From positions 1 to 52,984 of IMG/VR virus record IMGVR_UViG_3300031885_000019: 52,984 nt of DNA. One strand, written 5' to 3'. Numbering within the stretch: position 1 is the stretch's first letter; every line of letters starts with the position of its first letter. Made by a program: the position numbers and the translations under genes. This stretch comes from a virus. Taxonomy: Duplodnaviria; Caudoviricetes. This document shows positions 8,684 through 52,860 of this stretch, piece by piece. Below the pieces are notes generated by a model, which ran no database searches, was not told the DNA's origin, and saw only the letters and a list, made by a program, of their open reading frames with translations.

Positions 8684-9117
8684 CTCGACTCCTTCAGCTT
8701 CCGTAGACCACCACGGTACTTAGCCACCAGCCGGTTAGCTTTGGCGGGGTCGAGTTTGATGATGGGCCCAATCCGTCCCAAGTTATCCATCAGGTCGATC
8801 TTCTTGATCGTCTGCGCCGCTACTCCTGCCGCAATCACGCGGTCTATGTAGGCGGTATAGTCTTCTCCCTCCTGTCGGGTGAGGGCGTAGACCAAATCAT
8901 CCACACGGGGTCCGAAGTGGCGCTCGATGTCGGCGATCCGCACGTCAGTATCCTCCACGACATCGTGTAGAAGGGCCGCCGCCTGCTCCTCTTCGTCCAT
9001 TCCGAAAGCCCGCACCATCAGCATCACACGTAGCGGATGTAGGATGTAAGGCTCACCAGCCGCGTCTACTTGGCCCTGGTGGGCTTCTACCGCAAAGGCA
9101 ATCGCTTGCTCAAGCAT
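8668..9117 (-). CDS. HD-domain hydrolase, small alarmone hydrolase / Mesh1-like
   Basis: AHQGQ.D..GEPYILHPLRV, ALLHDVVEDT, IKKIDLMDN. Confidence 0.85.
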   Translation of the reverse strand: MLEQAIAFAVEAHQGQVDAAGEPYILHPLRVMLMVRAFGMDEEEQAAALLHDVVEDTDVRIADIERHFGPRVDDLVYALTRQEGEDYTAYIDRVIAAGVAAQTIKKIDLMDNLGRIGPIIKLDPAKANRLVAKYRGGLRKLKESRCRAR

Positions 9118-10180
9118 CCGCCGTTTCCTCTGCCTTCTCGTTCGGATCCGGGCGCCACAGTAACGGCGCTTCTTGAATCATCCGAAGCAACTCCGGTCGT
9201 TCCGCTAGGACAGTAGAGAATTGTTTTCTCTGGAACTTGACGCCATCCAGCGCGTACCAGGATCCGGCCTGTGTGACGATTCCCAGGCGCTCCAGCAGGT
9301 CTAGTTGGCTGTTGCTGTCGTCCACGCCACCGAGGGCGTAGATGTCAAACAACCCTTGCTTTCCCTCCGGGGCGATGCTACTCTTCCTTATCTCCGCTCG
9401 CACCGTGATGCCGACCTGATCCTCGCCACTCTTGATGACGCCGGTGCTCGTGAAGTACACGAGCAGTGAGCCCCAGAAGACCAGGGCCCCTTCCCCGGCC
9501 ATCGTGTTGCGTTTCATAGCCTTCCGGCGCTCCCTACTCCGCGGGTCGCCGATGATGTCGAGGTGCTGCCGGAGCTGGTTCACGAGGATAAGGGCTATCC
9601 TGTGCTGGGCCAGCATCGGACCCAACCGTTGCATCTCACGGCTTATCGTCCTGGCAATGATGCCGGGCTGCGGCTGGTCGTCGATGGCGGCCTCCAACTG
9701 TTGCTTGGCGGGCAGCGCCGAGAGGGAATCCACGACGATGCACACCAGACGGGCAGGGTCTTCCTCTCGGACCCACTTTATGATCTCCTCGATGTCCTTA
9801 AAGCAGGCCTCTAAGGTTGTGGGCGTCGGCATGACCAGCCGGGTGGGGATGAGACCAAGGCGTTCGCCGCGGTCTCGGCTGTACCGATGCTCGGCGTCGA
9901 TGAGGATCGCCAACCCGTCTCGGCGCTGCGTTTCCGCCAGAATGTGGTAGGCGACGGTGGACTTCCCGGCCCCTTCCTTACCGTAGAACACGGTGACACG
10001 GCCGACGGGGATACCCGGTTGTCCGATGATGAAGTTCAACATCGCGCACTGGGTACTGATGAAGTCGGCTATGTCCGAACTGAGGGGCTGAGAAGCGAGC
10101 TTCAGCTCAAACTTGGCAGCAAGACGCTCCTCAAATGTGCCGGTCGCGTCCTCTGGCGGGGACGCCTTCCGTCGCGCCAT
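9110..10180 (-). CDS. recA: RecA/UvsX-like recombinase
   Basis: GIPVGRV..YGKEGAGKST, IDAEH, IVVDSL, LVNQLR. Confidence 0.92.
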   Translation of the reverse strand: MARRKASPPEDATGTFEERLAAKFELKLASQPLSSDIADFISTQCAMLNFIIGQPGIPVGRVTVFYGKEGAGKSTVAYHILAETQRRDGLAILIDAEHRYSRDRGERLGLIPTRLVMPTPTTLEACFKDIEEIIKWVREEDPARLVCIVVDSLSALPAKQQLEAAIDDQPQPGIIARTISREMQRLGPMLAQHRIALILVNQLRQHLDIIGDPRSRERRKAMKRNTMAGEGALVFWGSLLVYFTSTGVIKSGEDQVGITVRAEIRKSSIAPEGKQGLFDIYALGGVDDSNSQLDLLERLGIVTQAGSWYALDGVKFQRKQFSTVLAERPELLRMIQEAPLLWRPDPNEKAEETADA

Positions 10181-21807: not shown

Positions 21808-22079
21808 TCGACGGGGAGTCCGCGCCAGACACCATTGCCCAGCGACCGCATCGGATGGGTTCCGTTGGCGCAGTAACCTACGTGTTGAACCCTAATCGGG
21901 TTACTTGCTACTACCCAAGGCAATCCGAGTGCGTCTCCTGCTTTGATAACGGCACTCACTTCGTCTTGGGCGAGCACGTCACACCAGGCATACTCCCGCC
22001 CTGTGGTGGTGCGCCTGTCCAGGTAGAGACGGAATGTATGCTGTACAACTTTGCTATGGGTAATCCTTGTGCAACTCAC
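21804..22079 (-). CDS. Hypothetical protein
   Basis: GTGA overlaps on both sides; RBS GGAGGAGG. Confidence 0.55.
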   Translation of the reverse strand: MSCTRITHSKVVQHTFRLYLDRRTTTGREYAWCDVLAQDEVSAVIKAGDALGLPWVVASNPIRVQHVGYCANGTHPMRSLGNGVWRGLPVE

Positions 22080-22246
22080 GTCTCCTCCTCCGTTATCCCG
22101 ATGCAGCCCGACTCTTCCAGCGTATCGAGCGCCCGCCAGATGGCGGATCGGCTGGCGTGGAGGTCAGCCTTCAGCTCTTCCATCGTCCAGTTGCGGCTCG
22201 GCCCCGACAGCAGGTGAAGCAGTCTAGCCTCTAGAGGTTGCGTCAC
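22076..22246 (-). CDS. Small winged-HTH protein (56 aa)
   Basis: Manual translation ...RLLHLLSGPSRNWTMEELKADLHASRSAIWRALDTLEESGCI; RBS AGGAGGG. Confidence 0.7.
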   Translation of the reverse strand: MTQPLEARLLHLLSGPSRNWTMEELKADLHASRSAIWRALDTLEESGCIGITEEET

Positions 22247-27641: not shown

Positions 27642-27830
27642 TCACCGCGCCCCCAGGACACGTAGCAGGAAGTCACTGTCCTGGCCGTACTGACAAGCCT
27701 GCCGAAGAGCCGTTTCCCAGTGTGGGCCTGCCGTGGACTCCCATCGGCGGTATTCAGCTATTGCCTTATCCCAGAACACCTGTAACAGGGATAGGCACTC
27801 GTTTAGGTAGTCTTCGATTGGGTGGGGCAT
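27642..27830 (-). CDS. Early hypothetical protein
   Basis: RBS TGAAGGGAGAGAG. Confidence 0.6.
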   Translation of the reverse strand: MPHPIEDYLNECLSLLQVFWDKAIAEYRRWESTAGPHWETALRQACQYGQDSDFLLRVLGAR

Positions 27831-29122: not shown

Positions 29123-29416
29123 CTACCCGGCCTTCAACGTATTCGTGAACGCCTCCAACTCCATATCCGACAACTCGCAGTCAAAGCAGGCGTCCTCATC
29201 GCCCCAGAACAGTGACACCCCATTGTCGCCGGTGTAGCACGTGCCAACAAGATCCACACCCCTAAGGGCCGAACCGGAATGTCGGCGAACCTGAATGGGC
29301 GACCTGTCTCTGAGTGTGAGCAACACGGCAACATCTTCGGCCGCCTCTTCCGGGCTGTCGAAGTCGTGATAGGGGTCCTGATCGCCTACCCGCATCCATA
29401 CCTTCAGGTCTTTCAT
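29123..29416 (-). CDS. Early acidic hypothetical protein
   Basis: RBS AAAGGAG. Confidence 0.65.
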   Translation of the reverse strand: MKDLKVWMRVGDQDPYHDFDSPEEAAEDVAVLLTLRDRSPIQVRRHSGSALRGVDLVGTCYTGDNGVSLFWGDEDACFDCELSDMELEAFTNTLKAG

Positions 29417-29586
29417 CGTGTCTGACTCCTTTTCCGTTTACATTCCCTGTTGTTGCCTGTTGTCGCTGGGCTCAAAGCCAACGCCCACGCAACAGTCAAC
29501 CTAGCCGGGAACCTTCTTACCTTTATTAGGATTGCATCGCCACCGGATCATCAAGGTTAACAACGATGTTGTCAACTTAGGTTCCT

Positions 29587-29790
29587 TTACCGTGGCCCCA
29601 GCTCTGAAACGTGGGCCAGGGCCCTGTCAGCAACCTCCAACAAGCGGTCTGACTCCGCACATGTGGCCCAGAACGCTCGCCGAGCTGCCTGGTACTCTTG
29701 CTCTCGGTTCTGCTGTAGGGCTAGAGCTGCGGCGTTGGATGCGCCAACGAGCTTTGCAATGCCCCGGAACATGATCTGTCCTCTGTCCAT
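29587..29790 (-). CDS. Early hypothetical protein (best match to the candidate antisense sRNA)
   Basis: RBS AAAGGGAGAGAG. Confidence 0.6.
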   Translation of the reverse strand: MDRGQIMFRGIAKLVGASNAAALALQQNREQEYQAARRAFWATCAESDRLLEVADRALAHVSELGPR

Positions 29791-29818
29791 TGTACTCTCT
29801 CCCTTTAAAGGCCGGGGC

Positions 29819-30016
29819 TTAGATTGGCCTGTGTTCTAGGGCTGCGCACAGCTCTTTGTATGCCCGTATCTCCCGCACGGCAGGCCGTTCCTTGCAAAAC
29901 TCCCGCGCGGCCCAGCACAGGCGGGCATGGTGCGTGTCACCCGTGATGTGGCCGATATGATACAGCTCGATTAGCTGCCGGTCCTCGGCTTCTGAGAAGT
30001 CATCGAATCTGGGCAT
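29819..30016 (-). CDS. First early gene, hypothetical
   Basis: RBS TGAAGGGAGGGGAG. Confidence 0.6.
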   Translation of the reverse strand: MPRFDDFSEAEDRQLIELYHIGHITGDTHHARLCWAAREFCKERPAVREIRAYKELCAALEHRPI

Positions 30017-30197
30017 TGTACTCCCCTCCCTTCAAGTAGAGGAGGTGGGGGCGTCCCTGCCCCTATGCGGCCATCCTAGTGCTCTTGTGTCCATTCCCTC
30101 CGGTCCACGTGGCCCTTTGGGTTTGTCACCTCTAGTATCGGCCTGTTGTTCCTAATCCTAATAACGTTACGGTGACGATTGCGTTACGTCCCTAATA

Positions 30198-30226
30198 AAG
30201 ATAGACCCCCGGAGAAGGCTTGTCAA
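30198..30226 (-). promoter_or_regulatory. Early sigma70-type promoter
   Basis: TTGACA-17 nt-TATCTT. Confidence 0.7.
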
Positions 30227-30776
30227 GGGGTTTGGCCAGCAACTTTCAAGAAAGTGTATGCCCTTAAGGACTCAGATTCGTACTCCTAATAAAGGTAGCG
30301 TCCATGCCCCATGCCCCATGCCCCAGGACAACAGGCAAGGGACAACGAACGTTGCCCCCTGCTCTAGGGCAACAAGCAACAGGCAACAAACTTGGGACAG
30401 GGGGTATGCCCTATCCTGTGTTGCGTTGCGCGCTACGCGAGGGCATGGTCCAGGGAGATAGGGGCCATCCGCCTATGCCCCTTAGCATTTGGCTCATCTA
30501 TCCTTGCCTGTTGCTCTGAGGTTCTCTAGTCTAGTTCTGGTTTGACATGGCTTTGGTTTCTCTACGGTGTCGTTTGATTTCTGCTTCTGTTTCGCTTCTG
30601 TATCTAATGTCTCGTGCAAAAATCTAAAAATTTCTGGGAGGTTTTTGGCCAGGAACCTTCCCCAGGCCATGTTTAGGGCCTATTAGGAGACGGACTAAAT
30701 TTAGTTGGTGGACTAAATATCGTCCAGGGGCCCCAGCAAAAAGCAACGGCTGTTGGTTGTTGCTGGGGAAATGCAA

Positions 30777-31049
30777 CTAAGGTGCCTTGGGAGTTGCTAC
30801 TGGGGAACAGCGGGGGCACTGACCGAGATGTTCTCGGTAGTGGGTGTGGCAATAGAACACCCGCTTGATGTCGGCGGGGATCGGGGTTAGGCCATCTGCG
30901 ACCGATTGGCCGTCCCGGACTGTGAAGTATAGGCCACATGGATAGCAGTTCCAGGCATCGGCACCTGGAACTAGGCTCCGGCTTACGTCCCGCTTGAGTC
31001 CGCACTTTGGGCACCGCGGGTAGGAGGCCAAGTTACGTCCACCGCCCAT
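30777..31049 (-). CDS. Zinc-finger protein
   Basis: CPKC, CYPC, CHTH, CPRC; RBS TGAAGGGAGAGG. Confidence 0.65.
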   Translation of the reverse strand: MGGGRNLASYPRCPKCGLKRDVSRSLVPGADAWNCYPCGLYFTVRDGQSVADGLTPIPADIKRVFYCHTHYREHLGQCPRCSPVATPKAP

Positions 31050-31258
31050 GTCACCTCTCCCTTCACATCCAGGGTAACAGGGTGGCGGACTTCTGGTCTA
31101 CAGGTGGTCTTTGATGAGGAAGTAGGCGGGGGCACCGTTGACGATGAGCCAGGTGACGGCGCCGAGGGCTAGGCAGCGGATGAAGAGAACCATGTTCTGC
31201 TCCTGCCGTTATTATCGGCGCCTGCGTCCGAAACCGAAGGTGTGGGCTGGCCCGACGC

Positions 31259-31459
31259 TTATACCTGGATTGTCCGGCACTTCGTACAGACCAGCCCGCC
31301 CCCGACTGCGGGGACGAACCAGTGGAATACCTCATGGCAGCGACGGCACTCCAGGTCGCTGTCCTCACGCTCCATCAAGTCGTGTCCAGAGGTGTAGGGG
31401 GGCCTGTCTTTCAGCCAACTGAGGAAGGATAGGAAGTGACAGTAGAACCTTCTCATCAT
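31259..31459 (-). CDS. Small zinc-ribbon protein
   Basis: CRRC...CTKC; TAATG overlap with the upstream gene. Confidence 0.55.
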   Translation of the reverse strand: MMRRFYCHFLSFLSWLKDRPPYTSGHDLMEREDSDLECRRCHEVFHWFVPAVGGGLVCTKCRTIQV

Positions 31460-31713
31460 TAACCTACAGGACGCCGCTCTTCCAGCAGGCCAGTGAGGGT
31501 GTCCAGTAGGCACAGGTAGCACTCCCACCACCAGACACCATGTCCAGGTTCCCGCGAGCTGCACTGGGGGCAGTTCTCGGCGTGGTCCTTGTCCACGGTG
31601 CCGTGGACCTCGAAGTAGGGGGCGAAGAGACGGCGCCGGTGGCATCGGTCGCAGCGTGACAGGAGCCGAAAGGTTGGCTCTATGGTCCAGGAATGGGCAG
31701 GTGGGTGTGGAAT
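31459..31713 (-). CDS. Zinc-finger protein (84 aa) with putative AUU start
   Basis: Manual translation with CDRC, CPQC and CYLC; GGAGGGAG 6 nt before ATT; in-frame TAG just upstream. Confidence 0.6.
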   Translation of the reverse strand: MPHPPAHSWTIEPTFRLLSRCDRCHRRRLFAPYFEVHGTVDKDHAENCPQCSSREPGHGVWWWECYLCLLDTLTGLLEERRPVG

Positions 31714-31737
31714 TGCCCTCTCCCTCCAAATACTAAT

Positions 31738-31992
31738 CGGGGTCTAACCCCATAACCCCGTCGTCCCAGGTGCGTGCCCAAAGGCCGCTTCTCGCTCCCC
31801 GGCAGATCTGGACCGGGGCCACCCGCCACTAGTATGCGGGCCCGTGTACCATAGTTCGCCTGGGCTTTCCGCTGGTCAACAGGAACCCGGAGGTTCCTGT
31901 TAGCCCGCCGTGGCTTTCACGACGGCGGGGTAGCGGGGTTAGCGGAGGCTCCTCGGACAGAGGCCACCCGTTGCCTTGGCCTCCGCCTACCC
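31738..31992 (-). ncRNA. Candidate ~255-nt structured RNA or leader
   Basis: Promoter TTGCAA-18-TG.TACAAT (31998-32027); multiple nested helices; no ORF. Confidence 0.6.
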
Positions 31993-32101
31993 TCTTGATT
32001 GTAGCAGGGCGATTCCGGCATTTGCAACAAAGTCTTTTACCGGGGCGCTTCTTATATCAACGATTAGGCCGATATTAGGGTGGAGGTTGCCTAGAAGTCG
32101 A

Positions 32102-32142
32102 AGATAATACAGAGGGCGCCGGATAGAGGATCCGACGCCCTC
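32102..32142 (-). terminator. Intrinsic terminator
   Basis: GAGGGCGTCGGAT / ATCCGGCGCCCTC stem followed by TGTATTATCTT. Confidence 0.6.
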
Positions 32143-32235
32143 CGCTCTCTGAGGCGCGGGGTGTATTGTGGTGGAGAAGGCGGCGACCCTCAGACGCCAC
32201 CACCCCGGCCTTTGAAGGGAGAGAGCTACATTGCG
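32102..32235 (-). ncRNA. Candidate antisense sRNA carrying an anti-Shine-Dalgarno tract
   Basis: Promoter TTGCAT-17-TG.TAACAT (32242-32270); 13-bp terminal hairpin followed by a U-rich tail; 28/31 complementarity to the leader of gene 29587-29790. Confidence 0.6.
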
Positions 32236-32297
32236 GACTTAATGTTAACAGATATTCATGGGGGATGCAAGCCTCCTAATAACCGTAAACACTATCC

Positions 32298-33233
32298 CTA
32301 CAGATTATCGGCGGGGGAGTAGAGGGCGTGAGCCCTCTGCGCCAGCTCTTCGGCACAGGCGGCCGTGTATCGGCGCAACATTACCACCGACTTCCAGCCG
32401 CAGATCTCCATTATGTCACTGTCCTGGGCACCCAGGCGCTTCATCTGACAGGCGGCCGACCGGCGGAAGGCGTGGACGCCCTTGTGCTGGACCCCTGCCT
32501 CCAAGCAGCGCCGTCTGATGATCTGGAGTACGCCCCAGCCGGTGAGGGGGGTGCCTCGGATGCCACGCCAGAGTGGTGGTTCTGAGATCGTCCAGTGCCG
32601 GATGTACCTCTCTATGGCTTGAAGTGCCGCCAGGCCTAGAGGTACGGTTCTGGTTCCGGTCTTGCCTGTGACCTGAACCGCCCTGCGTTCCCAATCCACC
32701 TCCCGCATCGAGACCAGTTCCCCCTCCCTGACGCCGGTATCATACAAGACGAGAATAAGGGCCCGGTCTCTTATACCCAAAGGACTTTTAGTAAAACAAG
32801 ACTCCAGTAGTCGGCGGACCTCCTCTGTGTTGTAGGTCGGCTGCGGGGTGGTGCGGAAGGACATGAGCGGGATCCCCCGCGTAGGATCCTCATCCAGTTC
32901 CCCTTCTTCCACCAGCCAGCGGAAGAAACGCCGCAGGGCGATCTGGGCCTCGCGCAGGGTCTTGTCCTTGCGCCCGGTCCGGAACTGGATGAGGTACTCG
33001 CGCAGCAGGGCGGGTGTGGTCTTGGTGAGGTCTCGGTCGCCCAGGTAGAGACAGAAGCGCCGGGCGTCCCGGACATAGTGGTAGATGGTGGAGGGCCGGA
33101 GCCCTTCCAGGATGAGTGCGCGGCCGAAGTCCTCTGTCAGATTCAAAGTCAGCGAGCGGCTGTTAACCGCTAGGTTCCAGGTTCGAATCCTGGTCGGGGA
33201 GCCAGTTTCCACCAAGCACCCCTCTAATAACAT
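32298..33233 (-). CDS. int: Tyrosine recombinase / phage integrase
   Basis: SAM-like N-domain, RDRAL...DTGVREGEL, GKTG, HAFRR, GW...MLRRY; start ATG 33233, TTG 33215 or GTG 33212. Confidence 0.93.
   Translation of the reverse strand: MLLEGCLVETGSPTRIRTWNLAVNSRSLTLNLTEDFGRALILEGLRPSTIYHYVRDARRFCLYLGDRDLTKTTPALLREYLIQFRTGRKDKTLREAQIALRRFFRWLVEEGELDEDPTRGIPLMSFRTTPQPTYNTEEVRRLLESCFTKSPLGIRDRALILVLYDTGVREGELVSMREVDWERRAVQVTGKTGTRTVPLGLAALQAIERYIRHWTISEPPLWRGIRGTPLTGWGVLQIIRRRCLEAGVQHKGVHAFRRSAACQMKRLGAQDSDIMEICGWKSVVMLRRYTAACAEELAQRAHALYSPADNL
33151..33204 (+). other. attP core: 3' portion of tRNA-Asn(GTT)
   Basis: Anticodon arm AGCGG-CTGTTAA-CCGCT, T arm CCAGG-TTCGAAT-CCTGG, TCGGGGA-G-CCA; no canonical D arm upstream. 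Confidence 0.85.
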
Positions 33234-33304
33234 CCCCTCGGCCCGATGTCAACCCCCTCAAATGCTAACTCCGCTTGACAATTCCCGCGCCTCTTTCCGA
33301 CAAT
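33224..33304. promoter_or_regulatory. Back-to-back promoters (leftward int; rightward ncRNA)
   Basis: Minus strand TTGACA(33247-52)-17-TG.TATTAG; plus strand TTGACA(33275-80)-18-GACAAT. Confidence 0.55.
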
Positions 33305-33307
33305 GGA

Positions 33308-33478
33308 AGTGTAAGAAGGTGCCCGCTGTTCGAGGGTGGGCCGCGGCGGTCTAACCACCGTCAACTGAGGGGCGGCAGATGGTGTAGGCAACAGGCACCA
33401 ATACCACCTCATTGTTGCACTAGTGGCAACGGTGAGTAACAGGAGCTTTTGGCGCAAGCCGCGGCTCCTGTTTTTCTT
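33308..33478 (+). ncRNA. Candidate ~170-nt structured sRNA
   Basis: Four hairpins then a terminator; no + strand ORF with an RBS. Confidence 0.55.
33438..33478 (+). terminator. Intrinsic terminator
   Basis: AACAGGAGC...GCTCCTGTT followed by TTTCTT. Confidence 0.7.
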
Positions 33479-33590
33479 AGTGTAGGATGAAGTCTATTAG
33501 GAGAGCGAAGAGGATAAGGGGAATCCCCAGGACGATGATCGTCCCAAGGAACACAAATAGGAATCCAGGTTCCGGGCGTTCCTTTGGCAT
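33477..33590 (-). CDS. Single-TM peptide (37 aa)
   Basis: Manual translation MPKERPEPGFLFVFLGTIIVLGIPLILFALLIDFILH; weak RBS. Confidence 0.5.
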   Translation of the reverse strand: MPKERPEPGFLFVFLGTIIVLGIPLILFALLIDFILH

Positions 33591-33617
33591 TTAGGAACCG
33601 TATCCACTAGTTCTTGC

Positions 33618-33860
33618 CTATATTGGGTCCACCGCTACCTGTTCCGGTGGCACTTTCCATTCATCACGGCGGTCAATGGCCTTAATCCCGAACTCCATGT
33701 AGTATTCCTTACCACGGGAACGGGAGAAGGCGGCCAGGAACCGCGACGTTACGTCCTCAATCTCCTCTGCGGAGATGAGGTGTCCGTCCTTTGGCTGTAG
33801 TACGCCGCAGAAAGCAATCGACTGCGGCTGGCGGGGCTTGTTGGAATCATTGTTGTTCAT
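33618..33860 (-). CDS. Hypothetical protein
   Basis: RBS GAAGGAGG before ATG 33860. Confidence 0.55.
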   Translation of the reverse strand: MNNNDSNKPRQPQSIAFCGVLQPKDGHLISAEEIEDVTSRFLAAFSRSRGKEYYMEFGIKAIDRRDEWKVPPEQVAVDPI

Positions 33861-34056
33861 CAGATCCTCCTTCTCTTTTCCGCACCACCAGCATCCACGC
33901 TTTCCCTGTAACCAGATCAACGAACGTATCGTTGATCGTCCACCCCTTGTAGCGATCCCCTATGGCCTTTGGGATGTGGAAGTGCGGCTCCCCATCCGGA
34001 TAGGGCTTTAGAGGCACGAACCTTCGCTCGATGTTGACTCCCTGAAGTTCTGCCAC
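33847..34056 (-). CDS. Hypothetical protein
   Basis: Downstream of TTGTCA-18-TG.TACGAT (34073-34102). Confidence 0.55.
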   Translation of the reverse strand: MAELQGVNIERRFVPLKPYPDGEPHFHIPKAIGDRYKGWTINDTFVDLVTGKAWMLVVRKREGGSDEQQ

Positions 34057-34072
34057 CTCTACCTCCGCCCCT

Positions 34073-34130
34073 ATCGTAGCACCTGTATAAGCCCATTGAC
34101 AATTGCATACCCAATTTGCGATCCTAATAA
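34073..34130. promoter_or_regulatory. Overlapping divergent promoters; the rightward one heads the virion operon
   Basis: Plus strand TTGACA(34096)-18-TG.GATCCT-AATA; minus strand TTGTCA-18-TACGAT. Confidence 0.55.
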
Positions 34131-34168
34131 TGAGAGGGTGAGTGATCCTTTTGCTCTAGGAGTTTGCC

Positions 34169-34606
34169 ATGTACGACATCTACGGGCCCGGAAAGGTTAC
34201 AGGGGCCGTTACCCCCCGCACTGAACCACAGGATACGGATAAGGCGGCCAAGGAATCCCTGGCCCGGTCTGGTGCTGGTGCCCTGGCTCCCGCCCCGGCC
34301 ATTCCCCGTGCCATCCAAGACGTGATCGATGACCTGAACGCCACCCGCCAGCGCCTAAGCGAACTCTGGGCGGCAGAGTGGAAGGCCAACAAGTGGGGTT
34401 CGGTACGCCCAACTCCTCCTACCCGTCCGTCCTACGATGCCGAAAAGGTGGGGCGTGATAAGGAAATGGCTGATCTGGAGAACCGGGAATCGGAACTCCT
34501 ACGTGAGGTGAACGCAATCCTGGCCGCATCTCGCATAAACCCGCCCGGCCGTCCGGCACCGACCCAGGTGCAGGCCAAAGAGAACGCAGCTCCCCGGAAG
34601 GAATAG
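34169..34606 (+). CDS. Hypothetical protein
   Basis: RBS AGGAG; first gene of the + operon. Confidence 0.65.
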   Translation: MYDIYGPGKVTGAVTPRTEPQDTDKAAKESLARSGAGALAPAPAIPRAIQDVIDDLNATRQRLSELWAAEWKANKWGSVRPTPPTRPSYDAEKVGRDKEMADLENRESELLREVNAILAASRINPPGRPAPTQVQAKENAAPRKE

Positions 34607-34609
34607 TCC

Positions 34610-34831
34610 GTGGGTGCCCAACAGCGACTCCAGGAGCACCGGAAGAAGGTACAAGCACACCTTTCACCAGAGGCGCAACGGCGCATCAGTGAGAAGATCA
34701 AGTACCTCGTGGACAAAGGAGAGGTTCCCAATACAACAGAGGGCCGCAAGAAGGCAGCCGCAGAAGCCTACTCGATGGAGAGGACCGGCCGTCTGCGGCG
34801 TCACGGCGTTTATGTTCCAAAGGGGAAATAG
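34610..34831 (+). CDS. Small basic protein
   Basis: ISEKIKYL...AAAEAYSM; tight packing. Confidence 0.6.
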   Translation: MGAQQRLQEHRKKVQAHLSPEAQRRISEKIKYLVDKGEVPNTTEGRKKAAAEAYSMERTGRLRRHGVYVPKGK

Positions 34832-34833
34832 CG

Positions 34834-35091
34834 ATGGCAAAGACTGATCGTTGGATGGGGCCGGTAGCGGCCAAGATGGAGAAGAAGGGCACGACGGGCG
34901 ACCTCCGCGCCATCGCCCAGCGCCGCGGGCTTCTCAAGGGTAAAGACGACACCCTCACTGAGGCGGATCTCACCACCCTGGCGAACGCCGCCCGCAAGAT
35001 GAAGGGCAAGGACGGCAAACTCACTGCGGAAGGACTTGACCTGATCCGTAAGGTGGGATTCGCCAAGAATGCGATGAAGGCCAAGAAGTAG
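34834..35091 (+). CDS. Small basic (Lys-rich) protein
   Basis: MEKKGTTG.L...FAKNA.K; RBS AAGGGG. Confidence 0.65.
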   Translation: MAKTDRWMGPVAAKMEKKGTTGDLRAIAQRRGLLKGKDDTLTEADLTTLANAARKMKGKDGKLTAEGLDLIRKVGFAKNAMKAKK

Positions 35092-35096
35092 GATCC

Positions 35097-35258
35097 ATGT
35101 CCTGCTCCTGTTCCTGCGGTTGCCATAAGGATGAGTGCCTTCCTGATGACATGTGTAGCGGGGAAGGTTGCCTTCTCTGTCATTGCGTCCGTGATGGTTG
35201 CCCTTGCATAGAGGAAGTAGAGACAGATGGTGAGGACGGCACAACTCCCCCCAGTTGA
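35097..35258 (+). CDS. Cys-rich metallothionein-like peptide (53 aa)
   Basis: Manual translation MSCSCSCGCHKDECLPDDMCSGEGCLLCHCVRDGCPCIEEVETDGEDGTTPPS; 11 Cys. Confidence 0.55.
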   Translation: MSCSCSCGCHKDECLPDDMCSGEGCLLCHCVRDGCPCIEEVETDGEDGTTPPS

Positions 35259-36993
35259 GAAGCTGGGGACTGACTTAGACCCGGCCCTCCAGCCTCTTTT
35301 CTATGGCCGCTCGCCTGCTGACATCCAGGCTTGGTGTGAGACCTTCCTGACTGTCCCGGACCTTCAGCAGCAGATCGTAGATGTCAGACTCTTTCCCCAA
35401 CAGATACAAATGCTGGAGGACCATACGGGGCGCGACGTTACGGTGAAGGGCAGGCAGTCCCGGACCTCCAGTCTAGAACTGATGGTCACGACGCGGGAAC
35501 TCACCACGACCTGGGGCTACACAGCCATCACCGGCGTCCACAATGATCCGGACACACAGGCATTCCGCCACCGCATCAAGCACCACCTGAGAGACTTGGC
35601 GGCGCACGGTCTGGAGTACACCCTGTCCGTTGACAACGACGATGAGTTGGCCATCAAAGGCCTTGAGAGCCGGGTCATCTTCCAGTCTGGCGAAAAGAGA
35701 ATAATCGGACGCTCAAGAACTGCACACAGAGTACACTTTAGCGAGGTAGCCCACTGGCGCCCGGAGACCGTCGGTCCGCTGATGGGGGGACTGAAGCCCT
35801 CTGTGCCGGGCCCGCCCTTTGGGTCAATCGTCCTGGAGAGTACACCAAATGGGGCAGAAGGTTATTTCTACGGTGAGATCCTTACTGCCCGTCCGAATGA
35901 TCCAGAGGGTCTCTGGACTGTCCACCTCTACCCGTGGTGGATGGAGCCGCGCTACCGCGTGGGTTCCGGGCCTGGGGTGGACATCTTGATCCCCGTATAC
36001 GAACTGCAAGAGAAACTGATCAACTTTCGGCCGACACCGGAGGAAGAGCGCCTCATGCACAAGGCGGATCTTACCCCCGACCGGATCCTCTGGCGCCGCC
36101 TGAAGATGGCAGACCTGGCTAAGACCACCACGCCCTTCGCCCAGGAGTTCCCTGAGAGTTTGGAGAGTTGCTTCCTGTCCATCAGTGGCAACTACTTCCA
36201 GACCCCGGATGGCATAGACCACCTGGAGTGGTACAGGAACCTCACCGCCCCTCCTGTCCTGGAGATGGAGGTTCTGCCCTACAACAAGTCTCCGGTGCTC
36301 TTTGGTAGCGGCCGCCTAGCCCTCTGGGAGTTCCCGGATCCCGCGCAGGTCTACACAGTCTATGTGGACTGTGCCAGCGGTGAGCAAGGGGACTCGGCGG
36401 ACTATACAGCCATCAACGTCCTTAATGTGGGGACGATGCACAAGGCCGCCCGCTTTCGGGCAAAGGTCACTCCCAACGATGCAGCGGCCATCGCCTGTGC
36501 TATCGGAGAATACTACGGTAACGCACTCCTTGGTGTGGAGCGCATCGGACATGGTTCGGCGTGCCTGGATCGGGTACGCGAACTTCTCTACCCGAACATC
36601 TACTACCACTACGACCCGATGCAGCCCAAGAAAGAAGTGAAGCCGGGTATTTACCCCACCCCCCAGATGCGAGAGAAACTCCTTCAAGGTCTCCGGGTGG
36701 CGGTGGTAAACCACACCTACGTCACGCGAGATGCTCTGGAGATGCAGGAGATGGGCACCTTTGATTGGACGAAGGCCCAGAACCGGATGAAGGCGCAAGC
36801 CTCCGGTGCCCAGGCACACGACGACATCCTTATGTCCGTGGCTGGATGCCTCCTCATGGCGCCGGAGGCCAAGATCCGCAGGAAACTCGGCAAGCGCGAA
36901 GACGAAGACGACGTGATCCTGGTGGGAGGCCACGGCGAAATCATCAACCCCTACCGCCAGAAGAAAGGCGGATCTCAGTGGTGGATGAAATAG
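35227..36993 (+). CDS. terL: Terminase large subunit
   Basis: VKGRQSRTSS (Walker A-like), HFSEVAHW, LESTPNG, FAQEFP, VDCASG..DY, HDDILMS. Confidence 0.9.
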   Translation: MVRTAQLPPVEKLGTDLDPALQPLFYGRSPADIQAWCETFLTVPDLQQQIVDVRLFPQQIQMLEDHTGRDVTVKGRQSRTSSLELMVTTRELTTTWGYTAITGVHNDPDTQAFRHRIKHHLRDLAAHGLEYTLSVDNDDELAIKGLESRVIFQSGEKRIIGRSRTAHRVHFSEVAHWRPETVGPLMGGLKPSVPGPPFGSIVLESTPNGAEGYFYGEILTARPNDPEGLWTVHLYPWWMEPRYRVGSGPGVDILIPVYELQEKLINFRPTPEEERLMHKADLTPDRILWRRLKMADLAKTTTPFAQEFPESLESCFLSISGNYFQTPDGIDHLEWYRNLTAPPVLEMEVLPYNKSPVLFGSGRLALWEFPDPAQVYTVYVDCASGEQGDSADYTAINVLNVGTMHKAARFRAKVTPNDAAAIACAIGEYYGNALLGVERIGHGSACLDRVRELLYPNIYYHYDPMQPKKEVKPGIYPTPQMREKLLQGLRVAVVNHTYVTRDALEMQEMGTFDWTKAQNRMKAQASGAQAHDDILMSVAGCLLMAPEAKIRRKLGKREDEDDVILVGGHGEIINPYRQKKGGSQWWMK

Positions 36994-37392
36994 ATGACTA
37001 CTAAGGGTTGCCGGTGGGCTTGTAAGAATCGTGTATCCACTGCGAGACGGATGACTGCGGTCGAAGCGGCTTGGGTGGGTGCAATGATCGAGGGTGAGGG
37101 CCACATCGGTTTGCGTAGCCGCGGCGAGGGTTATACGCCTGCCGCCAATTTCTGTGTGACCAACACTTCGATAGAGATCCTATCTACCCTTCTCCGACTT
37201 ACTGGTGTGGGGAGGATATATTTCTGTCCAGATCGGCGGCCAGATAAACTGGGTCATCTTCCTGTCTGGCGGTGGCACATTGTCCGCAAGGAGGACATGG
37301 TGGCCGTCGGGGAACAGATTAGGCCCTATCTGGTAGATAAGCGCGAGCATCTTGACTGCGTATTGGAGCAAGTTAGCGATGGCCATTCCTAG
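36994..37392 (+). CDS. Free-standing single-motif LAGLIDADG endonuclease
   Basis: AAWVGAMIEGEG, VTNT, IRPYLVDK. Confidence 0.75.
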   Translation: MTTKGCRWACKNRVSTARRMTAVEAAWVGAMIEGEGHIGLRSRGEGYTPAANFCVTNTSIEILSTLLRLTGVGRIYFCPDRRPDKLGHLPVWRWHIVRKEDMVAVGEQIRPYLVDKREHLDCVLEQVSDGHS

Positions 37393-46872: not shown

Positions 46873-47481
46873 CTACAACCGAATATCGGGGAGTGCGGTG
46901 ATCCCGCGTGTCACCTCCCGATGGCATCGGGCACAGAGTGGGGTAAGGTTTCCTGCTACATAACCCAACTCAGGCTTGATGCGATGGGCCTCAGAGGGTA
47001 GTTTGTTATACCCGCAGAGCCGACAGGGGGCCGCTCTTGTATCCCTACATGCTGTAGCATCTCGACCGTAGATGCGCCGCCGACCGTGTTCGGTTTCGTA
47101 CCAGGTCTTGTAGTGTTCCATGCATAGGCCACGCGCCCGGTGTGGGTGAGGACAGTCAGGGATTTTACAGGGGCGCCGCTTACGCGGTCGATTCAACCAG
47201 CACTCACGGCACAGTTGTCCTGTGGACTCTGAGCCCTTGAGTTTAGGGCGCGGCTTTCCGCATTGCTGACATGGGTGCATGTTCTGTACATGCTTCTGGT
47301 GGCAAGGCCAACAGCGTTTGGATAGAGCAACTCCGCCGTGTTTGCCCTTGTTGAGATAGTGTCCGCAATCCTCACACCGTGCTGGTTCTTTACGCTGTTT
47401 GGCCAACCAGCATGGGCGGCAAATCTTGGATCCCGGATATACGGGATGACCACACTCTCCGATAACGTCTGGTTTAGACAT
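46873..47481 (-). CDS. HNH endonuclease with multiple zinc fingers, antisense in the capsid operon
   Basis: Many CxxC; CRLCG...AHRI...GY...NL.PLCARCH; RBS TGAAGGGAGAGAG; promoter TTGACA-18-TG.TATGGT (47503-47532). Confidence 0.8.
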   Translation of the reverse strand: MSKPDVIGECGHPVYPGSKICRPCWLAKQRKEPARCEDCGHYLNKGKHGGVALSKRCWPCHQKHVQNMHPCQQCGKPRPKLKGSESTGQLCRECWLNRPRKRRPCKIPDCPHPHRARGLCMEHYKTWYETEHGRRRIYGRDATACRDTRAAPCRLCGYNKLPSEAHRIKPELGYVAGNLTPLCARCHREVTRGITALPDIRL

Positions 47482-47575
47482 GGGCTCTCTCCCTTCATCT
47501 AAACCATAACATGGTTCCGTTACGGTTGTCAATACTACAATTCCAGGGACGATTTTAACCGAGAGAATTGCAGGT

Positions 47576-52775: not shown

Positions 52776-52860
52776 CAGGGCCGGAAGAAGTTTCAACCTC
52801 CGGGGCGGCCGGGCCATCGGCCCGTAAAGGGCCGCCCCGAACTGTTAGAAGGGAGAGAGG

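Follow-up and report, generated by a model that had tools for sequence, protein, structure and literature searches.

A candidate small RNA gene beside the integrase of an uncultured tailed phage and its possible part in silencing the early genes

An integrase gene without a recognisable repressor is found in many phages that are known from metagenomes alone and in some cultured marine phages, and whether they are truly temperate is debated. The same question is raised by the Caudoviricetes record IMGVR_UViG_3300031885_000019, a single linear contig of 52,984 bases that is rated 72% complete and is called the window here over its whole length. Minus-strand genes occupy positions 1 to about 31,700 (the early arm), plus-strand genes run from 34,169 to the end, and between the two arms lies a region with a tyrosine integrase gene (int) and a phage attachment site (attP) in which no repressor of a described family is recognised. 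What could keep the early genes of such a phage silent? The answer proposed here, tentatively and with a chance put a little short of even, is that the region is a lysogeny and regulatory hub in which a small RNA (sRNA), encoded directly after int, would supply all or part of the silencing usually done by a CI-type protein, possibly together with a protein partner. RNA-based silencing in the manner of P1 c4 or P4 CI is plausible by analogy.

The elements on which this proposal turns are the following.

33224 to 33252, minus strand: P_int, TTGACA-17-TATTAG, a promoter directed through attP into int (from alignment)
33150 to 33207, plus strand: attP core, matching a tRNA-Asn(GUU) in its 3′ part, which extends from the anticodon stem through CCA and 3 further nucleotides (nt); directly upstream of the int start codon
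32298 to 33146, minus strand: int, an XerC/D-like tyrosine integrase of 282 amino acids (aa) read from TTG 33146 (Pfam, PHROGs and alignment of starts)
32242 to 32270, minus strand: P_sRNA, TTGCAT-17-TAACAT, directly after the int stop codon (from alignment A4)
32100 to 32235, minus strand: candidate sRNA, about 135 nt long (from its promoter and terminator, its conservation and its fold)
32226 to 32203, minus strand: anti-ribosome-binding-site segment of the sRNA
from there to 32145, minus strand: rod-like body of the sRNA
32145 to 32109, minus strand: terminator hairpin of the sRNA, 14–16 base pairs, with a U-rich tail on the minus strand only
32054 to 32075, no strand assigned: 22-nt palindrome or hairpin between the sRNA terminator and P_E (A4)
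31998 to 32027, minus strand: P_E, the early promoter, TTGCAA-18-TACAAT with TG (from the promoter scan; both hexamers invariant in 8 of 8 rows)

All relatives used for comparison are metagenomic. They comprise the IMG/VR contig G001, nine loci found through the integrase (one of which is G001) and three contigs found through the terminase; the window genome is named G000, its relatives are named G001, L001, L004, L005, L008, L010, L011 and L020, and L014 denotes a contig of a Chloroflexia metagenome-assembled genome (MAG). The region from int to the early genes is represented by six distinct sequences, and alignment A4 has eight rows, six of them distinct. No cultured relative was found, the large terminase being at most 23% identical to that of any of 50,697 phage records, and the DNA of 31000 to 35200 has no match in the cultured phage collection.

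The existence of a discrete sRNA gene is supported by its promoter, terminator, conservation and fold. In A4 the −35 element of P_sRNA is TTGCAT or TTGCGC, with TTGC invariant, and the −10 element TAACAT is invariant, while the sequence of the 17-nt spacer varies. From 32227 to 32145, 77 of 83 columns are invariant, compared with 72–80% identity in the neighbouring int DNA. The predicted fold of the sRNA has an energy of −68.3 kcal/mol (z −5.0 against shuffled sequences), and its consensus structure comprises 44 pairs, five of which show compensatory changes, four of these in the terminator. Several G-U pairs, or changes from G-C to G-U, would become C-A mismatches on the other strand, which fits transcription from the minus strand. 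A protein gene on the plus strand, starting from a copy resembling a ribosome-binding site at 32214, was considered and is excluded, since the frame across the sRNA is not conserved: as read from A4, its length changes with the lineage (26 aa, 7 aa, more than 100 aa). The letters that are conserved in this frame are those of the minus-strand promoter. Rfam holds no family for the sRNA, either at gathering thresholds or at E≤5, and a 21-mer from it was found in only one other IMG/VR contig. Among public sequencing runs, none holding RNA was listed for 31400–34300, a result that has no bearing on expression.

The sequence of the sRNA offers an explanation of what it might act on. Its segment 32226 to 32203 is the reverse complement of the translation start regions of this phage, that is, of their consensus ribosome-binding site. 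The longest inverted repeat within 29400 to 34300 joins this segment to 29795–29817 (23 nt, 96%), which is the ribosome-binding site of a 67-aa early gene at 29587–29790, and further inverted-repeat arms link the segment with the sites of three genes whose starts are at 30016, 31049 and 31713. The last of these is the first gene of the early operon, whose ribosome-binding site is 88% complementary to the sRNA over 16 nt; 14 of these pairs are of the Watson-Crick type, and by eye two G-U pairs complete an unbroken 16-nt run. The underlying 12-nt motif, GAAGGGAGAGAG, occurs 19 times on the minus strand and four times on the plus strand when up to two mismatches are allowed, and from a reading of the flanks at least a dozen copies stand a few bases before a start codon. 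Perfect motifs of this early type were also seen at 47484–47497 (minus strand), before a minus-strand open reading frame (ORF) at 47193–47498 inside the late arm, and at 52848–52859 (plus strand), before a late gene near the right end.

Duplex energies were calculated between the sRNA and the regions from −30 to +12 of the called genes, with random 42-nt windows of the same transcripts as the control. The seven best duplexes reach −48.8, −44.8, −44.1, −40.8, −39.8, −39.7 and −38.7 kcal/mol, against −23.8 ± 5.1 for random windows. The strongest include the gene that starts at 29790 (−48.8), the UvsX/RecA-like gene (−44.8) and the first early gene (−38.7), and the other strong targets are the genes starting at 27830, 28230, 23443 and 3358. 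Averaged over 60 starts of the early arm, the duplex energy is −26.2, compared with −22.1 ± 1.1 for 200 shuffled seeds (the best of which reached −25.0) and −20.6 for 20 starts of the plus arm. The upstream flanks of the best targets contain C-rich words that match the next part of the sRNA. The sRNA is a strong candidate for a trans-acting regulator, since it is bounded by a promoter and a terminator of its own, has a body that hardly varies and contains an anti-ribosome-binding-site sequence.

The second component of the proposal is the position of attP. The ORF at 32298–33233 (minus strand) matches Phage_integrase (2e-23) and the SAM-like N-terminal domain Phage_int_SAM_1 (1.3e-9) in Pfam, and PHROG_1 integrase (8e-44). 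Its longer form, up to 33233, crosses the tRNA-like core, and this 5′ extension is missing in the relatives; because their ATG start aligns with TTG 33146 (77% identity to L001), int is taken as 32298–33146. ARAGORN calls no tRNA in the window, and the Rfam tRNA model scores 28.8 bits at 33130–33201 (plus strand) against a gathering score of 29. A 42-nt stretch of the core is exact in four MAG contigs, two of Chloroflexota and two of Phycisphaerae. In the Chloroflexia contig L014, identity to the window extends over about 57 nt (about 33150 to 33207), including the encoded CCA and three further nucleotides; ARAGORN calls a tRNA-Asn(gtt) at the matching site of L014. From this one tRNA, the host is probably a Chloroflexota bacterium. 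The first-pass annotation had likewise recognised int and attP and had placed the core at 33151–33204, which is correct within about 3 nt.

All seven relatives that cover the region carry a tRNA-Asn sequence at the attP position. L001 and L004 have its 3′ part, as in the window, and L005, L008, L010, L011 and L020 have a whole tRNA-Asn gene. The order P_int, tRNA-Asn sequence, int start is the same in the window and in the seven relatives aligned or scanned. Since attP lies between P_int (33252 to 33224) and the int start (33146), integration must disconnect int from its promoter. The earlier description of the prophage geometry also holds: one end of the prophage would have int together with the sRNA and the early-operon leader, and the opposite end would have the plus-strand leader, next to the rebuilt tRNA. 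No integrated copy was found when an integrase profile was searched against one genome each for 185,579 species, and no specific attL or attR was found in contigs of four DNA runs, where the loose ends at 33151–33207 are the tRNAs of many organisms and not specific.

Some features of this site were noted beside the main analysis. In the five relatives with whole tRNA-Asn(GTT) genes, these genes lie between P_int and int, an arrangement that recalls tRNA-dependent lysogeny as outlined in the available text of PMC10865867; L008, L010 and L011 also retain an older remnant of the anticodon arm in the alignment, and L005 (1696–2263) has an HNH nuclease gene beside its tRNA. In each of two sediment runs, a single contig of 2005 nt seems to connect 32055 with 33318. 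This joint, whose matching side is only 30 nt long, would skip the sRNA, int, attP and both divergent promoters, and it may represent a relative that has no integrase.

Promoters were sought with a strict consensus scan over 29500–35500, with shuffled sequences as the control. Six sites were found against 2.1 ± 1.5 in shuffles, and three of them fall within the studied region, at 33275–33304 (plus strand), 34102–34073 (minus strand) and 32027–31998 (minus strand). Three more were added to these, and the spacers are of 16–18 nt. Besides the three listed above, the promoters are these.

33275 to 33304, plus strand: P_plus, TTGACA-18-GACAAT, back to back with P_int (scan, 10 of 12)
34073 to 34102, minus strand: P_g64, TTGTCA-18-TACGAT, its −35 abutting that of P_late (scan)
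34103 to 34131, plus strand: P_late, TTGCAT-16-TAATAA(T), ahead of the plus arm, the first ORF of which is at 34169 (read from the sequence)

At least six promoter-like elements had been reported for this region, and six, of sigma-70 type, are recovered, three by the scan and three through alignment by their conserved hexamers and variable spacers. The −35 of P_int is present in seven of seven aligned rows and TATTAG in five of seven, with the length of the spacer kept and its sequence varying. The −35 of P_plus is conserved in every row that covers it, and in L004 P_g64 keeps its −35 and has TACACT as −10. Five of the sites thus show conserved hexamers (with variants in some rows) and spacers of constant length and varying sequence, the pattern expected of real promoters. 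P_late is the weakest of the six, as it is missed by the strict scan and its −10 is not conserved in L004.

From these elements a course of events can be proposed. After infection, the circular genome would express int from P_int, by a transcript that crosses the core and would end at the sRNA terminator. The sRNA would have two sources, its own promoter, P_sRNA, and probably the int transcripts, of which it would form the 3′ end. With its 5′ region, CUCUCUCCCUUCAAAGGCCGGGG, it would then pair with the unusually long ribosome-binding sites of the phage, which consist of GAAGGGAGAGAG and the C-rich flanks upstream. Such pairing would block translation of early genes, among them the first early gene, the 67-aa early protein and the UvsX/RecA-like recombinase, and the untranslated early transcript would be prone to premature termination and decay. 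Integration at the tRNA-Asn would cut int from P_int, halt further recombination and so stabilise the prophage. It would also set the plus-strand leader unit behind the rebuilt tRNA-Asn, from whose promoter the unit could be read.

A protein repressor was searched for in several ways. A set of 110 ORFs, including weak ORFs in gaps, was compared with Pfam (E≤0.01, best 25 of 50 families) and PHROGs; 74 ORFs shorter than 160 aa were scanned again with Pfam (E≤0.05, best 25 of 27 families) and PHROGs (E≤0.01, all 20 families); and ten mid-sized proteins, as well as the ORFs around the switch at E≤1, were scanned directly. No CI/Cro, S24, excisionase, RHH or AbrB protein is among the matches listed in the ORF scans or in six-frame searches, where HTH_3, HTH_31, Peptidase_S24, HTH_17, RHH_1 and MazE/AbrB were each found in neither of two records (G000 and G001) and the controls were positive in 12–14 of 14 genomes. 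The sole DNA-binding matches among those listed belong to a 56-aa winged helix at 22076–22246 (minus strand; HTH_11, 5.5e-7), which lies inside the early operon, overlaps its neighbours and is found by the six-frame HTH_11 search in both G000 and G001. The first-pass annotation is thus borne out in having seen no CI/Cro or S24 ORF and in its 56-aa winged helix, which is real. Its TerS-like gene, the other one credited with a helix-turn-helix (HTH), is not supported by the scans of 34169–35258, which gave neither a TerS nor an HTH family. No divergent HTH_3/XRE or CI-like repressor gene was found upstream of P_E, where the sRNA gene stands in tandem with that promoter. The absence of a repressor holds at the level of family recognition only, and an undescribed family would be missed.

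The best place for an unrecognised repressor is a small operon transcribed away from the late promoter (34056 to 33477).

33847 to 34056, minus strand: g64, 69 aa
33618 to 33860, minus strand: g63, 80 aa
33477 to 33590, minus strand: g62, a hydrophobic peptide of 37 aa

None of the three has a Pfam or PHROG family. The first gene, g64, is kept in four lineages, with only two homologues among 5.8 billion proteins. Its AlphaFold2 (AF2) model, with a mean confidence (pLDDT) of 77, has the order strand-helix-strand-strand and no match in the PDB at E≤0.001 (Foldseek). The leads from the Atlas are weak: the nearest models to g64 are DUF4177-like, and g63, which has no structural model there, gives feature matches of at most 0.81.

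Possible binding sites for such a protein are of two kinds. At the early promoter the possible operators amount to a single 22-nt palindrome upstream of the −35 of P_E. Its outer arms co-vary between lineages (ATATC..GATAT versus GTATC..GATAC in A4), and no second copy exists within 29400–34300; it may be a protein operator or an RNA hairpin. In addition, TTATTAGGA occurs 15 times with at most one mismatch, compared with 3.6 ± 1.7 in shuffles, and most of its copies, which lie on both strands, are intergenic; its sites include 15797, 27524, 29523, 30156, 30284, 32274 and 34122, and relatives do not keep the two copies at P_sRNA and P_late. The word may serve as an operator or a promoter element, or it may belong to a larger repeat. 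The palindrome and the enrichment of TTATTAGGA hint, from their sequences, at DNA-binding proteins.

The region contains two other structured segments, which belong to leaders. Three ORF-less structured segments had been described here, and all three have folds below the shuffled expectation (z −5.0 for the sRNA, −2.4 for the early leader and −3.6 for the plus-strand leader); the stretch 33477–34056 is not free of genes, as it holds the three small minus-strand ORFs given above.

31714 to 31991, minus strand: early-operon 5′ leader, about 280 ORF-less nt from P_E to the first early gene
31990 to 31870, minus strand: optional module of the leader, three hairpins, about 120 nt, absent in three of six lineages
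31864 to 31765, minus strand: four-way junction of the leader, common to all six lineages
31459 to 31713, minus strand: first early gene, gE1, an 84-aa CxxC...CxxC (zinc-ribbon) protein (from translation)
33311 to 33478, plus strand: plus-strand leader, starting at P_plus, with a conserved block (33311–33405) and an intrinsic terminator (about 33440–33478)

In the three of six lineages without the optional module, the early transcript starts directly with the four-way junction. Downstream of the junction come a hairpin with the conserved loop UAUGGGGU and then a strong ribosome-binding site. The single-sequence fold is modest, as its z-score indicates, and RNAalifold gives 28 pairs, eight of them with compensatory changes; one lineage alters the closing stem and a whole arm. 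A covariance model built from the leader has eight matches in 122,200 bases, all of them training copies or duplicate contigs, so that the structure is present in one copy per genome and no second copy was found in these bases. Put-type antitermination RNA, known from HK022, consists of paired stem-loops downstream of each early promoter, with more than one copy per genome, and the single structure here differs from it in this respect. Rfam scores on the leader are below gathering for CPEB3 (25.9 versus 35 bits, optional module) and for sul1 (27.2 versus 36.2, two arms), and the leader is therefore not a member of either family. A CPEB3/HDV-like ribozyme at 31932–31995 was rejected, as no P2 or P3 pairing is seen by eye and the segment is absent in three of six lineages. 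By sequence comparison, the four-way junction is a new structured RNA with covariation support and without a known family. Judging from where it lies, it may control elongation or the translation of the first gene.

Within the optional module, 31921–31942 is 82% complementary over 22 nt to the hairpin at 31744–31765, and the minimum-energy fold uses this pairing, which may form an alternative-structure switch in the lineages that bear the module. The gene that follows, gE1, shows 64–82% identity in an alignment of five lineages. It has no Pfam family, and its AF2 model (pLDDT 76) has no PDB match by Foldseek; the only match to its profile is the same single IMG/VR contig that contains the sRNA 21-mer. 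Its start codon (31711–31713) is ATT in the window and ATG in relatives, with a possible GTG in an uncertain frame in L010, so that in this genome the ATT is a non-canonical, weak start or else a change that inactivates the gene.

The plus-strand leader folds with −76.3 kcal/mol, and its conserved block is 79–89% identical in six relatives. None of its 27 pairs shows compensatory changes, because the leader hardly varies. Coding by the block 33247–33400 was rejected, as frames differ between lineages and there are indels of 1 nt. In the relatives this leader precedes cargo ORFs, namely a 41-aa membrane peptide, a 238–257-aa protein without a family and an HNH-type nuclease; the window retains only the leader and terminator of this unit. 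Judged by sequence and position, the early leader and the plus-strand leader are cis elements. The earlier suggestion that the lysis-lysogeny decision may be run by RNAs and by rewiring on integration is thus supported in part, by the sRNA as a candidate trans-acting regulator and by the position of attP between P_int and int, and not by the other two RNAs.

Several observations weigh against giving the sRNA a role in immunity. The strand call depends mainly on promoter and terminator because both strands fold almost alike: the plus strand reaches −65.6 kcal/mol (z −4.2), near-equal to the minus strand, and one pair of the body, at columns 43/67, reads C-A in the window if the minus strand is taken but would read G-U if the plus strand were. 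Seven bases of the anti-site, GCUCUCU, take part in pairs of the predicted fold. Immunity determinants usually diverge, whereas the sRNA does not vary among relatives. The 23-nt match is specific to this genome, as G001 has the sRNA gene itself alone and relatives of the L005 type carry a different ribosome-binding site at the homologous gene; what is shared among relatives is therefore only a generic anti-site, and such an anti-Shine-Dalgarno sequence would pair with many host mRNAs too. Blocking translation does not by itself shut off an early promoter of sigma-70 type. All six distinct sequences come from a few related sediment metagenomes, so that few independent changes are available, and the roughly 28% of the genome that is missing leaves room for a protein repressor.

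It is rather unlikely, though a reading of real weight, that the phage has a conventional repressor, either of an undescribed family or encoded in the missing part, and that the three RNAs are an int terminator or 3′ untranslated region, an operon leader and a cargo leader. The candidates would be g64 (or g63 or g62), the 56-aa winged helix and the zinc-ribbon first early protein. Such a repressor is suggested by the conserved promoter of the g64 operon, with its −35 abutting that of the late promoter, and by the retention of g64 in four lineages; by the symmetric co-variation of the palindrome just upstream of P_E; by the excess of TTATTAGGA between genes; by conservation of the winged helix in G001; and by the 72% completeness of G000. 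Repressors of phages first thought to be without one, such as SPbeta, were found later. Yet six frames of two genomes give no HTH_3, HTH_31, S24, HTH_17, RHH or AbrB signal, the g64 model matches no DNA-binding fold and is nearest to DUF4177-like models, the winged helix sits inside the early operon among overlapping neighbours, and the TTATTAGGA copies at P_sRNA and P_late are not conserved. A protein repressor would also leave the near-invariance of the sRNA body and its anti-site unexplained. A further reading, which is quite unlikely, is that the phage integrates without forming classical lysogens and that the sRNA acts as a timer in its lytic cycle, shutting off early translation late in infection as an RNA counterpart of T4 RegA. 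It accords with the large lytic-style replication set of the minus arm (family A DNA polymerase, primase, helicases, UvsX/RecA, and gp32-like and UvsW-like proteins), the SU10-type capsid, the failure to find an integrated copy among 185,579 species genomes and the preference of the sRNA for early-arm start regions, and T7-like cyanophages with int and attP are described in the available part of PMC8776855 as integrating without stable lysogens. It accords poorly with the location of the sRNA, in the int cassette and not among early genes, and with an attP that rebuilds a tRNA and an int promoter that integration cuts, which suggest selection for a stable integrated state; the 32055–33318 joint, which skips sRNA, int and attP together, points weakly in the same direction, with 30 nt on one side.

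It is very unlikely that the structured segments have no function as regulatory RNAs and merely arise from terminators and from intergenic DNA rich in G+C. The G+C content of the window (56–64%), the similar z-scores on both strands of the sRNA and plus-strand leader segments, the 0 of 27 compensatory pairs in the latter and the lack of an Rfam family at threshold would fit this explanation, but the non-coding blocks are more conserved than the adjacent int, compensatory changes occur in eight of 28 leader pairs and five of 44 sRNA pairs, and promoter hexamers are kept while spacers vary. The most far-reaching form of the RNA proposal, that of a temperate clade without any protein repressor in which one sRNA of the int cassette, the same throughout the clade, mimics the 16S anti-Shine-Dalgarno sequence, covers the extended ribosome-binding sites of the phage and so silences the whole early arm while integration switches off int, is itself unlikely. 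The reading preferred here is the more modest one, in which the sRNA would do all or part of the silencing and may have a protein partner.

Known phage RNAs offer partial parallels to an sRNA of this kind. The c4 RNA of phages P1 and P7 and its target come from a single transcript, out of which c4 is cut; it controls the icd-ant operon only and works alongside C1, a protein repressor. As far as the available text of PMC12197685 describes it, c4, of the immI region, is a small structured repressor RNA that pairs around the ant ribosome-binding site and blocks translation. The candidate sRNA is likewise complementary to ribosome-binding sites of lytic genes. Unlike c4, it adjoins int, has its own promoter and terminator upstream of P_E, is not processed from a target transcript, and matches a consensus ribosome-binding site common to at least a dozen genes; no relationship to c4 was found by sequence or in Rfam. 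The CI RNA of satellite phage P4 is an immunity factor which, according to the portion of PMC4825925 at hand, pairs with complementary sequences of the early transcript and so keeps the replication genes from being expressed in the lysogen. P4 CI arises by processing of the early leader and acts through termination of transcription at seqA and seqC, whereas the candidate sRNA lies upstream of the early promoter, has its best matches in ribosome-binding sites and would bring about termination only as a secondary consequence. The short RNAs sar of P22 and OOP of lambda tune lysis-lysogeny by pairing with ant or cII mRNA, again as stated in the accessible part of PMC12197685. Both are cis-encoded antisense RNAs overlapping a single target, and the candidate here would be trans-encoded, on the same strand as its targets. 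A limited literature search on phage sRNAs that act on ribosome-binding sites in lysogeny brought up c4, sar, OOP, CI, IsrK and others but no int-linked RNA aimed at a shared ribosome-binding site, and Rfam has no match at gathering thresholds in the whole window and no described family for any of the three segments.

The integration side has its own parallels. The repressor gene of mycobacteriophage BPs contains attP and loses a degradation tag on integration. In BPs and its relatives, the position of attP makes expression integration-dependent, in a minimal switch without xis, cII and cIII, on the available accounts in PMC3694055 and PMC4557955. Here, unlike BPs, attP lies in a 5′ untranslated stretch between P_int and the int start, and it is crossed by no repressor ORF but solely by the 5′ extension of int that is missing in relatives. 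T7-like cyanophages and podovirus pelagiphages resemble this phage in having lytic-type genomes, int, a tRNA-derived attP and no known repressor, and the accessible text of PMC8776855 and 10.1101/410191 reports no sRNA beside int in them. With a terminase at most 23% identical to that of any cultured phage, the lineage described here is unrelated to those cyanophages and pelagiphages. By analogy, the system would be a variant of antisense-RNA immunity combined with integration-dependent rewiring that recalls, but differs from, switches of the BPs type.

The remaining features of the contig concern the two arms. The Pfam and PHROGs matches of the minus arm, referred to above for replication, also include a RuvC-like resolvase, and no terminal repeat of 10–399 nt was found in the contig. 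Two genes serve as landmarks.

9110 to 10180, minus arm: RecA/UvsX-like protein
35227 to 36993, plus arm: large terminase; the SU10-type capsid protein is encoded in the same arm

An ORF-poor stretch at 30020–30700 lies at the minimum of the cumulative GC skew and has the lowest G+C of the window (0.536 for 30001–31000). It contains repeated CAACAGGCAA and TTGCCTGTTG words in both orientations as well as three copies of TTATTAGGA, is 72–85% conserved in six relatives, and looks, from its sequence, like a replication origin with iterons. Between the terminase and portal genes, a 132-aa ORF at 36994–37392 appears by eye to be homing-endonuclease-like, and two relatives are without it, their DNA matches jumping from about 36988 to 37364. 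In relative G001, a 106-aa ORF early in the early operon (L001 2111–2431) has a winged-helix-like N terminus (MarR, E 0.16 only); at its position the DNA of the window differs, with 31486–31043 replacing about 840 nt.

As sequence features, the sRNA gene and the junction in the early leader are well supported, and the function of the sRNA and the absence of a repressor, judged on an incomplete contig from a few related metagenomes, are unproven. What this locus provides is a concrete and testable candidate, an int-linked RNA gene whose sequence explains its possible targets. If the proposal is true, RNA-based immunity, which is known from P4 and as a secondary circuit in P1 and P7, would extend to an unrelated lineage and to a mode with many targets, all of them masked by one RNA through the ribosome-binding site that they share. 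Genome annotation would have a new signature to seek next to orphan integrases, and the extended ribosome-binding sites specific to a phage could be read as an address label for its self-regulation.

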